Source of the DNA: a virus
Taxonomy: Duplodnaviria > Heunggongvirae > Uroviricota > Caudoviricetes
DNA length: 4,701 nucleotides
Reading direction: 5' to 3' (one strand)
Virus record (IMG/VR): IMGVR_UViG_2713896783_000005
Shown: positions 2,074-4,537 of the stretch, one piece after another
How the letters are laid out: each line of letters begins with the position of its first letter
How positions within the stretch are numbered: position 1 is the stretch's first letter
The notes under the pieces: model-generated
The model's input: the letters and a program-made list of their open reading frames with translations, nothing else
The model's database searches: none
Told to the model about the DNA's origin: nothing
Translations under genes and position numbers: made by a program

Positions 2074-2790
2074 ATGGAAACCGTATTTGACGCACTGAAA
2101 GCACTGAAAAAAGCCTCTTCACAGGTAGTGGCATCGCGCCTTGGAATCAGCCGCGAAGATGCTGTCAACGAACTGTGGAAACTGAAGCGCCGTGGTGAAG
2201 CGGATAACAAGGGGTCGATGTGGTGGCTGACTCAGACTGGTGAAAGTGAACCAGTGTCACCGGTACCGAAAGTGACAGCGCAAATGCTGACTGAGGCGAT
2301 TGAACATCATGGCCCACAAACGGCGGATGAGCTGGCACTGATGTTCGGGATTACCTCCCGCCGGGCGAATTCATCACTGGCCATGGCAATCAGCAAAGGG
2401 CGTCTGATTCGCGTGAATCAGGGCGGTAAATTTCGGTACTGCATACCGGGCGCTGATTTACCGGCAGAGCCGAAAGCCGCATCCATAACGGAAACGGATG
2501 GTAAAGCCTTTCCTCAGCCAGCAGGTGTTGCGTTACCAGTCGGGGAAGCGGAAACACAGGAAGAAATAAAAACGGAAAGTGTGGCGGTCACAGTGCAGTC
2601 ACAGCCGTCGTTCACCAGAAAGCATCCGGATGGTCTGATTTTACCATCGCTGCATGTGGCTAACCGCGAGCTGCGCCGGGCAAAAGGTCAGGTTCAGAAG
2701 TGGGAGCGAGTCTGCGCCGCGCTGCGGGAGCTGAACAAGTGCCGGGATATTCTCCGGGATATTACCGCCACCAGAGAACAGCAGCGGTGA
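2074..2790 (+). CDS. Hypothetical prophage protein with two tandem winged-helix-like modules (possibly DUF1627-like)
   Basis: ATG 2074 preceded by GGAGG (2061-2065) at 8 nt; the track's start at 2056 is a TTG with no RBS. Two similar segments ([12 protein letters not shown]...[20 protein letters not shown] and [46 protein letters not shown]) look like wHTH folds. Family name is from memory only. Confidence 0.7.
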
Positions 2791-3104
2791 GTGGGTGGAA
2801 GACGTGGTGCCGGGCGGAAATCATGATACTCCGGCAGTGTGCGGGAACGATGAAGGTAAAAAGCGTTGGCGCACTTATCGGACGAACTGAAGCGGCAGTG
2901 AGAACGAAGGCACGGGAGCTGGGCATCAGCATGATGTTACGTGGTGATTTTCACCCGTCGGCAAAATATTCTCAGCGTGATATTGAGCTGGCGCGGCAAC
3001 TGCATCAGAGAGGCATGCAAAGAAGGGAAATTGCCAGAAAATTAGGCATGCCGCTGCGCATAGTGAATAACTACGTTTATTTCGACAGGAGGGTGTCTGC
3101 GTGA
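2787..3104 (+). CDS. Small DNA-binding protein with two tandem GcrA-N-terminal-like HTH modules; start uncertain (GTG 2787, or ATG 2823/2850)
   Basis: Two repeats of the pattern W/Y-x-x-x-E/D-I-x-x-L...G-x-x-x-x-E-I-A/V...LG ([11 protein letters not shown]...[17 protein letters not shown] and [27 protein letters not shown]), resembling the GcrA N-terminal domain as I recall it. GTG 2787 overlaps the upstream TGA (2788-2790) as GTGA. The track's 2700 start would overlap the upstream gene by 90 nt and is rejected. Confidence 0.55.
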
Positions 3105-3328
3105 AAATCCTGTATCAGGATTACGGCCCGGTGGGGCAGGTGGTTATCAGCAGTACTGTAATGGAGTTTCGGAAGCATAACCGTGTGGTGGATGCTGTGC
3201 TGTTAACCTGTCCGGGGATATCGGCGAGTCGTGCAGGTGTGTTTATTATGAAGACGAAATTATATGGCAGTAAGGCGTGGATAAAGAAGGCGTATCGTGT
3301 AGCGTTGCAGGAGGTTAACAGTGAGTGA
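3101..3328 (+). CDS. Hypothetical small basic protein (75 aa)
   Basis: GTG 3101 preceded by AGGAGG (3087-3092) at 8 nt and overlapping the upstream stop as GTGA (3101-3104); about 11 K/R vs 5 D/E; no family recognised. Confidence 0.5.
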   Translation: MKILYQDYGPVGQVVISSTVMEFRKHNRVVDAVLLTCPGISASRAGVFIMKTKLYGSKAWIKKAYRVALQEVNSE

Positions 3329-3632
3329 AATTAAAGAAATGCCGGTAGTTCGTGACGGATATGGCTACTGGACACATCCTGAATATGAAAAATTCTGTGA
3401 TGGTCGGGAATATATTTCAACGGAAGAGTTTAACGCCTGGATGGAGGAAAATAATCTTCAATACGTCCTCTGCTTCAGAGATGAAGGATGTGCTGACCTT
3501 GATGCGTGTGATGCTGATATTTCTGCATGGGAACCGGAACGACCAGAGGGCGATGGCTGGTTTATTGGTTCCATTCATGATACGGAAGATGGCCCGGTTT
3601 GTGTCTGGTTGCGAAATAAGGCTGAAGCATAA
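3321..3632 (+). CDS. Hypothetical strongly acidic protein (103 aa)
   Basis: GTG 3321 preceded by AGGAGG (3309-3314) at 6 nt; overlaps the upstream gene by 8 nt; about 25 D/E vs 8 K/R by my count, Trp/Cys-containing; stop TAA 3630-3632. Confidence 0.6.
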   Translation: MSEIKEMPVVRDGYGYWTHPEYEKFCDGREYISTEEFNAWMEENNLQYVLCFRDEGCADLDACDADISAWEPERPEGDGWFIGSIHDTEDGPVCVWLRNKAEA

Positions 3633-3731
3633 AGGCGATAAACCAACTAACAACTAAATACTGAAGATTTAAATCAGAAACGATTTTTATTAAATCCTTA
3701 ACCGGAGGGATTCCTGCACCCTCAGAACATC

Positions 3732-3759
3732 AGGAGGCCGCCCGAAAGGGCGGTAAGAA
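3732..3759 (+). promoter_or_regulatory. Structured translation-initiation region: AGGAGG, then a CCGCCC-GAAA-GGGCGG hairpin, then 6 nt to ATG 3760
   Basis: Perfect 6-bp GC stem (3738-3743 with 3748-3753) closed by a GAAA tetraloop; consensus SD AGGAGG at 3732-3737 lies 22 nt from the ATG in linear sequence but about 6 nt if the hairpin forms. Confidence 0.35.
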
Positions 3760-3978
3760 ATGAAACATTATTTAGAAAAAAATTACCCACGAAAGAGCAG
3801 AACAACAGAGTTTCTGTTTTTCATTCTGTTTATAGTGTTGATGATACCGATATCCCCGCTATTACTGGTCTGGATAATTGGAAGGACATTTGAACCAGTT
3901 ATTGAGCTATATACCGATGTGACATGGGAATCATTCAGCGCACTGCACAATAAAATTAATCCGTATAAGGAAAACTGA
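3760..3978 (+). CDS. Small single-pass membrane protein (72 aa), AT-rich moron-like gene
   Basis: ATG 3760; hydrophobic segment FLFFILFIVLMIPISPLLLVWIIG flanked by a basic N-terminus (KNYPRKSR); rare codons (ata, aga, agg, cta, tta) and low GC contrast with neighbours; preceded by a 127-bp AT-rich non-coding stretch. Confidence 0.6.
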   Translation: MKHYLEKNYPRKSRTTEFLFFILFIVLMIPISPLLLVWIIGRTFEPVIELYTDVTWESFSALHNKINPYKEN

Positions 3979-3979
3979 T

Positions 3980-4537
3980 ATGAGCACTATTACCAGAGAA
4001 CGCGCGGAGATTAAATCATACATCACAGGCTTCCTGAGCGACTCGGCGCACGATAACAAGTCTTCAGACAGCCTGCTGGCTAATGTGTTTCGTATCGCGC
4101 TGGCATCACTGGAAGCAGAGCCGATAGCAATGGTAGTGCCTGATGAAATGGATTTGCTTACCTGCCATCTCGACGGTGTAACTAAAACATATGCTGATGG
4201 CTGGAACGCCTGCCGCGTCGCCATGCTTCAGGCCGGAAACTTTCGGGAAAATAAGAATTCGTCAACCAACAATTTTCGGGAAATCTCGGAAACGTCAACC
4301 AGATCTCCGATAACTCTGGATGGCTGGATAAGCTGTACTGAGCGAATGCCTGAAAAGAGCCAGAACGTGCTTATTTCGATGAATATCGATAGCGAGGCTG
4401 GGCCATTAATATATTCCGCACGCTATCTCGGAGGCACGTTCCGGCGCGGAGGTATAGCAGTTAGTCCGGGTAATGATCTTAGGCAAGCAACCCACTGGAT
4501 GTCGCTACCAGAACCGCCGCAGGAGGTGAATCAATGA
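3980..4537 (+). CDS. Prophage protein with DUF551-like C-terminal domain
   Basis: ATG 3980 one nt after the upstream stop, with AAGGA (3967-3971) upstream; C-terminal segment DGWISCTERMPEKSQNVLISM...ATHWMSLPEPP matches my recollection of the DUF551 signature (W...LP...HWMPLPEPP). Stop TGA 4535-4537. Confidence 0.7.
   Translation: MSTITRERAEIKSYITGFLSDSAHDNKSSDSLLANVFRIALASLEAEPIAMVVPDEMDLLTCHLDGVTKTYADGWNACRVAMLQAGNFRENKNSSTNNFREISETSTRSPITLDGWISCTERMPEKSQNVLISMNIDSEAGPLIYSARYLGGTFRRGGIAVSPGNDLRQATHWMSLPEPPQEVNQ
4237..4302 (+). repeat. In-frame imperfect 33-bp tandem duplication inside the DUF551-like gene (encodes NFRENKNSSTN / NFREISETSTR)
   Basis: TTTCGGGAAA at 4241-4250 and 4274-4283, and CGTCAACCA at 4260-4268 and 4293-4301, both 33 bp apart; located at the junction between the N-terminal region and the DUF551-like domain. 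Confidence 0.55.

Follow-up and report, generated by a model that had tools for sequence, protein, structure and literature searches.

A small prophage protein of Shiga-toxigenic E. coli with two different predicted HTH domains and a conserved linker: one uncharacterised protein of a widespread phage family

The window, by which we mean the whole stretch of 4,701 nucleotides that was analysed, is the early-right region of a Rac/lambdoid-type prophage and is, over the stretch used as query, 100% identical to many Shiga-toxigenic E. coli chromosomes, for example that of O157:H7 TR01. The genes of this region, the overlaps at the two ends of the gene studied here and the start codon called by RefSeq/PGAP are the following:

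543-1586, + strand: O-like replication initiator with DnaT domain
1378-2040, + strand: P-like helicase loader
2074-2790, + strand: DUF1627 gene, directly upstream of the gene studied here (Pfam DUF1627, 7.9e-79)
2787-2790, + strand: GTGA overlap on the upstream side, the GTG start (2787-2789) lying over the TGA of the DUF1627 gene (2788-2790)
2787-3104, + strand: CDS of the two-HTH protein, stop included (155 homologues at E<=1e-3; the family alignment supports the full length)
2823-2825, + strand: ATG taken as start by RefSeq/PGAP (93-aa WP_000603384.1), judged to be the internal Met M13 and a truncated call
3101-3104, + strand: GTGA overlap on the downstream side, the gene's own TGA (3102-3104) lying over the GTG (3101) of the phrog_1001 gene
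3101-3328, + strand: small ORF phrog_1001, the next gene (PHROG assignment)
3321-3632, + strand: small ORF phrog_1372
3760-3978, + strand: DUF4014 gene
3980-4537, + strand: DUF551 gene

The gene for the two-HTH protein is an intact ORF coding for 105 residues, in frame with the listed ORF 2700-3104, and it is a real gene. The initial annotation had placed a small protein at 2787-3104 and these coordinates are correct, the ORF being intact and its long start being supported by homologues. The protein has a pI of 11.1, with 21 K+R against 8 D+E. Scanning for promoters and terminators gave no such site between the two-HTH gene and its neighbours, and an Rfam scan gave no separate RNA element at the gene. 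Since there is no promoter or terminator in between and since the gene overlaps its neighbours by 4 nt at both ends, we take it to be one cistron of a delayed-early operon. Judging from its position in the operon, it would be transcribed along with the replication genes in the delayed-early phase, and the protein would be made, like the replication proteins, soon after induction. The 4-nt GTGA overlap with the DUF1627 gene suggests translational coupling, and the two-HTH gene is probably coupled in this way to its neighbours. Iteron clusters were also seen inside the O-like gene of the same operon.

The DUF1627 gene lies directly upstream in 80 of 80 E. coli-type viral loci, even where DUF1627 identity is 43-66%, and the cargo downstream of the two-HTH gene varies among the same 80 loci. 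The DUF1627 partner is absent in other genera, and there the two-HTH gene follows a P-like protein, DnaB or RecT. Tight gene packing is seen in these genera too and in phages D6 and Parlo and the Vibrio phages.

RefSeq/PGAP names WP_000603384.1 a 'DNA-binding protein' and starts it at locus 12124, which is window position 2823. In an alignment of 24 diverse homologues from several genera W7, A10 and E11, the residues that open helix 1, are invariant, and most of these homologues start about 3 residues before W7. The GTG at 2787 is the sole start codon 5' of W7 that does not reach deep into the DUF1627 gene. Because the PGAP call drops the invariant W7, A10 and E11, we judge from the alignment that GTG 2787 is the correct start and that the 93-aa RefSeq/PGAP call is truncated. 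A long form of 105-112 aa is annotated as well in phage D6 (orf90, 105 aa), in Serratia phage Parlo and in a Vibrio phage.

An AlphaFold2 model built from a 90-sequence alignment gave two three-helix units (mean pLDDT 77, pTM 0.44), with helices at residues 9-18, 24-31 and 35-45 in the first unit and 63-74, 79-86 and 90-104 in the second. The first unit was modelled with better confidence (pLDDT 85) when residues 4-55 were taken alone. With a pTM of 0.44 and a linker pLDDT below 50, at residues 54-57, the model leaves the relative orientation of the two units unpredicted. The parts of the protein are the following:

2799-2930, + strand: Domain 1 (D1), residues 5-48, Myb/GcrA-type three-helix HTH (AlphaFold2 span residues 9-45)
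2889-2921, + strand: predicted recognition helix of D1, residues 35-45
2931-2972, + strand: inter-domain linker, residues 49-62, family pattern SL-x3-G-[DE]-x-H-x3-K-Y-S, low pLDDT
2973-3098, + strand: Domain 2 (D2), residues 63-104, Hin/resolvase/Tc3-type three-helix HTH, from the AlphaFold2 helices and Pfam
3054-3098, + strand: predicted recognition helix of D2, residues 90-104

The predicted third helices are conserved, and the nearest structures are all DNA-binding HTH domains, namely, the GcrA DNA-binding domain (DBD), IstA, Tn3 resolvase, sigma region 4, Tc3 and Myb. Among close homologues G53, H56 and S58 of the linker are invariant and K60 and Y61 nearly so, and the length and pattern of the linker are kept in relatives at 28-58% identity. 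Since both length and sequence are kept at this distance, conservation suggests that the linker has a role in spacing or in contacting DNA. Two different HTH domains and a fixed linker make up the whole protein.

It had been proposed that the protein is built from two repeats with the motif W/Y-x-x-x-E/D-I-x-x-L ... E-I-A/V ... LG, both resembling the N-terminal domain of GcrA. The motif matches each half in part and neither half exactly. The first half has W7-x3-E11-I12-x2-L15 but S26-V27-G28 in place of E-I-A, and its LG in the matching register is I31-G32 and not L45-G46. The second half has Y61-x3-D65-I66, with the L (L68) one position too soon, and further on E81-I82-A83 and L86-G87. BLASTP of one half against the other gave no match at E<=100 and hhalign of narrow profiles made from close homologues gave a probability of only 1%. 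Broad profiles were then made from 85 D1 units and 51 D2 units cut from the 1305 proteins of an exhaustive HMMER search, and with these hhalign aligned D1 to D2 over 40 columns (probability 95.2%, E 2.6e-8). The motif implies the same register, with W7 on Y61, E11 on D65, I12 on I66, V27-G28 on I82-A83 and I31-G32 on L86-G87. In 150 family representatives the D1 and D2 HMMs gave zero cross-assignment. The resemblance of the halves is therefore above chance at the family level, yet it is generic for three-helix HTH domains and a recent tandem duplication is unsupported. What stands of the two HTH-like halves is the pair of three-helix units and their common register; the units are of distinct subtypes, D1 of Myb/GcrA type and D2 of another, and a tandem GcrA repeat was rejected.

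In sequence searches GcrA was found with the broad D1 profile. The Pfam GcrA model (PF07750) did not match the whole protein at E<=1 nor either half at E<=10, so that the window protein does not reach the gathering score of 26.9 bits, and PDB sequence searches with the single protein or with narrow half profiles did not find GcrA. With the broad D1 profile, a PDB-wide search gave the GcrA chains 5yiu_A (E 4.9e-5, 26.2 bits) and full-length 7ye1_G (E 2e-4), and a one-to-one alignment with the deposited GcrA sequence ran end to end at 27.6 bits. Some distant multi-unit members of the family score above the Pfam gathering score (P0130, 36.5 bits; P0162, 34.9 bits). The profile searches suggested as a check by the initial annotation therefore did detect GcrA-like similarity, through the broad D1 profile and not through Pfam. 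The same D1 profile gave 27-29 bits with c-Myb repeat 3 (R3), equal to or slightly above GcrA, and at E<=0.01 the commonest Pfam label of D1 units was Myb_DNA-binding (12 of 85) against GcrA in 2 of 85. The window protein's own D1 has no Pfam match at all, Myb included. The GcrA DBD (Caulobacter GcrA residues 1-45; PDB 5YIU/5YIV; the N-terminal part of PF07750) is the closest solved structure for D1. Of the three spaced tryptophans of Myb/SANT domains (PF00249; c-Myb R2R3, PDB 1H88/1H89) D1 has only the first, W7, and the second unit of the protein is not Myb-like. D1 is best described as a Myb/GcrA-type three-helix HTH.

In GcrA the DBD (residues 1-45) is followed by a disordered linker (46-107) and by a C-terminal domain that interacts with sigma70 region 2, carries a CCCH zinc finger of the form C-X14-C-X9-C-X2-H and is required for activation (PMC5887438). 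Bases are read by R33, N34, I37, G38, H41 and R42, and the first four of these build two methyl pockets for m6A (PMC5887438). In the profile alignment the six base readers fall on E35, A36, R39, T40, R43 and E44 of our protein, none identical. W3, T32 and K39 of GcrA, which serve the fold or contact the DNA backbone, fall on W7, T34 and K41, which are conserved in the family, while W15 of GcrA is replaced by A19. The two-HTH protein has a GcrA-type N-terminal three-helix DNA-binding domain in D1, but the long linker and the CCCH zinc-finger domain are absent, as the protein ends at residue 105 with the second HTH and its only cysteines are C8 and C18. GcrA is an alphaproteobacterial regulator, whereas this is a protein of an enterobacterial prophage with a second, different HTH in place of linker and zinc finger. 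As Pfam gives no match, 0 of 6 base readers are kept and the sigma70-binding zinc finger is missing, the protein does not belong to the GcrA family. It may have its DNA-binding fold in common with GcrA, but it cannot work by the known mechanism of GcrA.

For D2 the GcrA reading did not survive, only 2 of the 51 D2 units being labelled GcrA by Pfam at E<=0.01; HTH_23 (20), Sigma70_r4_2 (14), HTH_7 (13) and HTH_38 (10) were among the labels of the 51. The best HTH_7 match of any D2 unit in the family has an E-value of 2.6e-8. The D2 of the window protein scores 21.9-23.2 bits on HTH_7 (PF02796) over residues 60-87, where the cut-off is 23.8, and matches HTH_23, HTH_3 and Sigma70_r4_2 as well. 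D2 is of the subtype found in Hin, resolvase and Tc3 (HTH_7, HTH_23 PF13384, HTH_38; bipartite domain of Tc3 transposase, PDB 1U78), although our protein lies just below the Pfam cut-offs and its D1 is of another subtype. No serine-recombinase or transposase catalytic domain is present in the 105-aa protein, and adjacent ORFs have no serine-recombinase domain.

The best family match of the whole protein was PHROG 323, named 'transcriptional regulator, D5-like', at 91.8 bits and E 1.2e-25. Residues 5-104 align with positions 147-248 of the 319 in the profile, so that the two-HTH protein is equivalent to a module in the middle of longer proteins; for this clade the name is a database label. A T5-like 'D5 protein' is among the BFVD fold matches. 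An archaeal two-HTH 'CRISPR repeat binding protein' of the same length (PDB 2LVS, 105 residues) is about 13% identical, but the D1 and D2 profiles both match its second domain and a two-domain correspondence is not shown. PADLOC-DB defence models gave no match at E<=0.01 to the two-HTH protein or to five neighbouring gene products, and NCBIfam gave no curated family for it.

The 155 homologues came from a word-indexed search of 5.8 billion proteins; they are mostly 100-105 aa long and belong to Escherichia, Salmonella, Enterobacter, Pantoea and Franconibacter. The exhaustive HMMER profile search of 1.84 billion representatives gave 1305 at E<=1e-3. Intact copies of the gene, with coverage of >=80%, occur in 526 complete E. 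coli genomes, and identity across genera is 58-70%. In 150 representatives the recurrent architectures were D1-D2 (about 105 aa) and D1-D1-D2 (about 150-180 aa), and the order D1-D2, the linker length and the linker motif are kept down to about 30% identity. Among cultured phages tblastn found relatives in phage D6, Serratia phage Parlo, Pantoea and Xanthomonas phages and about 88 Vibrio phages, the feature being a 'hypothetical protein' or unnamed in all matches listed; megablast against cultured phages gave no match other than to the 3' end of the DUF1627 gene. BFVD has many phage proteins of 100-125 aa, uncharacterised as well, that align over the full length. The sources and cluster look-ups gave no names beyond 'DNA-binding protein' or 'hypothetical protein', no paper found mentions the accession, and DUF1627 appears in the literature found only as a synteny marker. 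There was no dedicated Pfam or NCBIfam model for the D1-linker-D2 family among the models searched and no characterised member was found. We place the two-HTH protein, itself uncharacterised, in a phage family of small bipartite HTH proteins that is widespread.

Bipartite domains of the Tc3/paired type and Myb R2R3 place one recognition helix in each major groove and read a composite asymmetric site. They make up a functional class and not a homology family, and our protein would belong to it, its own two-domain layout being predicted and conserved. On this comparison, the two-HTH protein would bind double-stranded DNA as a monomer, the third helix of D1 and that of D2 would each enter a major groove, and the linker of fixed length would set the spacing so that one composite asymmetric site is read. 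That the protein binds DNA at all is very probable. Its role would be that of a sequence-specific regulator or an architectural factor on phage or host DNA during early lytic growth, which is our guess. Taken together, we propose with a probability of roughly 0.6 that this small basic prophage protein is a monomeric bipartite sequence-specific DNA binder acting as a regulator or architectural factor early in lytic growth. The suggestion of the initial annotation that it is a phage transcription factor is plausible; the regulator reading is tentative, somewhat short of even odds, and we rate it above a role in replication or recombination.

As a replication or recombination accessory the protein would act alongside the O-like, P-like and DUF1627 products, binding either recombination intermediates or the origin or iterons of the phage, and would not regulate transcription. 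The two-HTH gene is immediately 3' of the replication module made up of the O-like DnaT-domain gene, the P-like loader and DUF1627, its E. coli copies always following DUF1627 and those of other genera the P-like protein, DnaB or RecT; the 'D5-like' label of PHROG 323, the BFVD match to the T5-like protein and the iteron clusters in the O-like gene point the same way. However, in D6, Parlo and the Vibrio phages the gene has small early ORFs around it and no replication gene next to it, mosaic 'nin-like' cargo typically sits at a module boundary as this gene does, and searches of Pfam, PHROG and NCBIfam did not link the sequence to any family of replication proteins. We therefore regard such a role as unlikely, though worth keeping in mind.

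It is a good deal less probable that the protein is a DNA-binding module that came from a transposase or homing endonuclease and now acts alone, for instance as decoy, immunity factor or selfish remnant. D2 units do match HTH_7, HTH_23, HTH_38, HTH_SB, HTH_Tnp_1 and CENP-B_N, and proteins named 'Endonuclease', 'HNHc domain containing protein' and 'Transposase' in BFVD carry a similar two-HTH module. Yet the dominant, conserved architectures stand alone, at about 105 aa and about 160 aa, with a conserved linker of their own, no catalytic-domain remnant flanks the gene, and the cross-genus identity of 58-70% speaks for selection on a function of its own.

SANT and sigma region 4, which are three-helix relatives of D1, can also mediate protein contacts, and the protein could instead be a helical protein-protein interaction module of SANT-like, anti-sigma-like or TPR-like kind that does not bind DNA. 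In favor of this, phmmer against PDB sequences ranks TPR proteins (Pins/LGN) first with an E-value of 2.8e-7, and the exhaustive search contains a 1621-aa TPR protein. The TPR scores, however, are sums of many sub-significant repeats, each stretch having an independent E-value of at least 1.4, and they fall on residues 35-96, which in the model are the linker and the D2 HTH (pLDDT about 90); the TPR or designed-repeat reading of the PDB sequence searches was rejected as an artefact of summed weak repeats. The structural neighbors, all HTH DNA binders, and the pI of 11.1 likewise speak against a protein that does not bind DNA, which we consider very improbable.

A DNA methyltransferase-type gene lies 1-3 genes downstream of the two-HTH gene in 7 of the 8 loci of other enterobacterial genera. 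Pfam confirmed C-5 cytosine methylases (PF00145) in three of them (L084, L087 and L088), those of L089 and L090 were recognised because tblastn showed them to be 75-80% identical to the enzymes of these three, and L083 has a DUF4942 protein with a weak sub-threshold MTS match (20.9 bits, cut-off 23), of which L085 holds a 97% identical copy. In one homologue, P0036, the protein is fused to an N-terminal fragment of a D12 Dam-type methylase. Overall, no more than about 15 of the 93 loci have a methyltransferase gene near the two-HTH gene. The prophage of the window lacks one downstream as far as the Q-like region, and the annotations of phage D6, Parlo and the Vibrio phage show none within 4 kb. 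For these reasons the linkage was discounted and rejected as a functional module; it is treated as a shared position in the mosaic 'nin-like' cargo region and kept as a lead. The most that could be made of it is that D1-linker-D2 proteins are modification-aware DNA readers of phages, in which GcrA/Myb-type and Hin-type heads sense methylation and tune early expression. GcrA as the closest structure of D1, the methyltransferases downstream in several enterobacterial genera and the single Dam-fragment fusion hint at this, but the methyl-pocket residues of GcrA are not conserved and the methyltransferase is missing at most loci, and we hold the idea to be highly improbable. Just as improbable is a GcrA-type regulator that rides on RNA polymerase sigma70, reads N6-methyladenine sites and activates a subset of promoters, for the same structural and methyltransferase hints and a BFVD fold match to a phage protein called 'GcrA cell cycle regulator' are outweighed by the lack of a Pfam GcrA match, of any shared base-contacting residue, of the sigma-interacting domain and of a methyltransferase in its own prophage, and by Myb repeats that fit D1 equally well.

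The preferred reading is that of a bipartite DNA binder of early lytic growth, and the two-HTH protein is fairly ordinary phage cargo. The analysis gives a description at the level of domains, namely, a Myb/GcrA-type HTH, a conserved linker and a Hin/Tc3-type HTH, for a family with 1305 representative clusters. The start correction applies to many RefSeq E. coli genomes in which the start of the two-HTH protein is mis-called. GcrA-DBD-like heads occur outside alphaproteobacteria without the sigma-binding tail, and a 'GcrA-like' label on phage proteins should not be taken as GcrA function. If the protein turns out to be a regulator of the prophages of Shiga-toxigenic E. coli, it could bear on the biology of prophage induction.

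The DUF1627 gene (window 2074-2790, +) and the two-HTH gene directly downstream of it (2787-3104, +) behave as a fixed pair in all of the E. coli loci L002-L081 (80/80), and the pairing persists even though DUF1627 identity falls to 43-66%. DUF1627 itself gave faint winged-helix matches (MarR, TrmB and HTH_11). The two genes may constitute a two-gene module. The RefSeq/PGAP annotation places the start of the window allele of the two-HTH gene at ATG 2823 instead of at GTG 2787, and the resulting 93-aa product (WP_000603384.1) lacks the invariant W7, A10 and E11 at the beginning of helix 1. Other alleles of the family are annotated with a length of 102-105 aa. The ATG 2823 call is probably a systematic start-site miscall across many STEC genomes.

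In seven of the eight loci from other enterobacterial genera, the homologue has a DNA methyltransferase-type gene one to three genes to its 3' side:
L083 and L085, 5925-7607: methyltransferase-type gene
L084, 6237-8288: methyltransferase-type gene
L087, 6608-8665: methyltransferase-type gene
L088, 6305-8395: methyltransferase-type gene
L089 and L090: equivalents of the L084, L087 and L088 genes
One type of downstream gene codes for a C-5 cytosine methylase of about 690 aa, often accompanied by a second methyltransferase-like ORF of about 250 aa, and the other type codes for a DUF4942 protein whose methyltransferase-domain match is weak. Overall, such a downstream gene was found in only about 15 of 93 loci, and it is absent from the window's own prophage. 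The close homologue P0036 (156 aa) is an in-frame fusion: its first 55 or so residues are an N-terminal piece of a D12-class (Dam-type) DNA methyltransferase (PF02086), and the complete two-HTH protein follows. This fusion is probably a recombination scar.

Elsewhere in the window the following features were located:
207-684: two copies of about 210 nt, about 95% identical, one on each side of an N run
421-470: the N run (50 N)
671-730 and 951-1000: GTCACG(A/G)-type iterons in two clusters, both within the O-like replication gene
1001-1033: short tandem repeat of the AGATAAAGATAC type, 3' of the iteron clusters, encoding a TDKD repeat
3738-3753: hairpin CCGCCC-GAAA-GGGCGG with a 6-bp G+C stem and a GAAA tetraloop
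4659-4701: partial match to the sok antitoxin RNA (Rfam RF01794; 26.7 bits, E 0.004), truncated at the edge of the window
The duplicated stretch comprises the 5' end of the O-like gene and the region upstream of it, and 207-684 appears to reflect a scaffold gap or a junction of similar prophage copies rather than biology. The two iteron clusters look like an origin. The hairpin lies directly in front of the start codon of DUF4014, in the last part of 3633-3759, which is the one intergenic gap of appreciable size; it lacks a trailing T-run and matched no Rfam family. The partial sok match fits the annotation of a Hok/Gef gene a short way 3' of this stretch in the identical O157 locus (L001, 14129-14284).

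Residues 43-94 of the two-HTH protein (window 2915-3068), spanning the end of the first HTH domain (D1), the linker and part of the second (D2), matched TPR proteins (Pins/LGN, TPR_10/12) via summed weak scores, because of which a 1621-aa TPR protein was drawn into the profile search. We rejected a TPR relationship, judging the similarity to be a compositional or helical-periodicity artefact. The profile search also returned certain long metagenomic proteins made up of 4-11 tandem HTH units, all D1-like or all D2-like:
D1-type arrays: P0130 (791 aa), P0162, P0167 and P0171
D2-type arrays: P0139 (818 aa), P0152, P0166 and P0193
Some units of the D1-type arrays passed the Pfam GcrA threshold. 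Poly-HTH arrays of this D1-only or D2-only kind are unusual.
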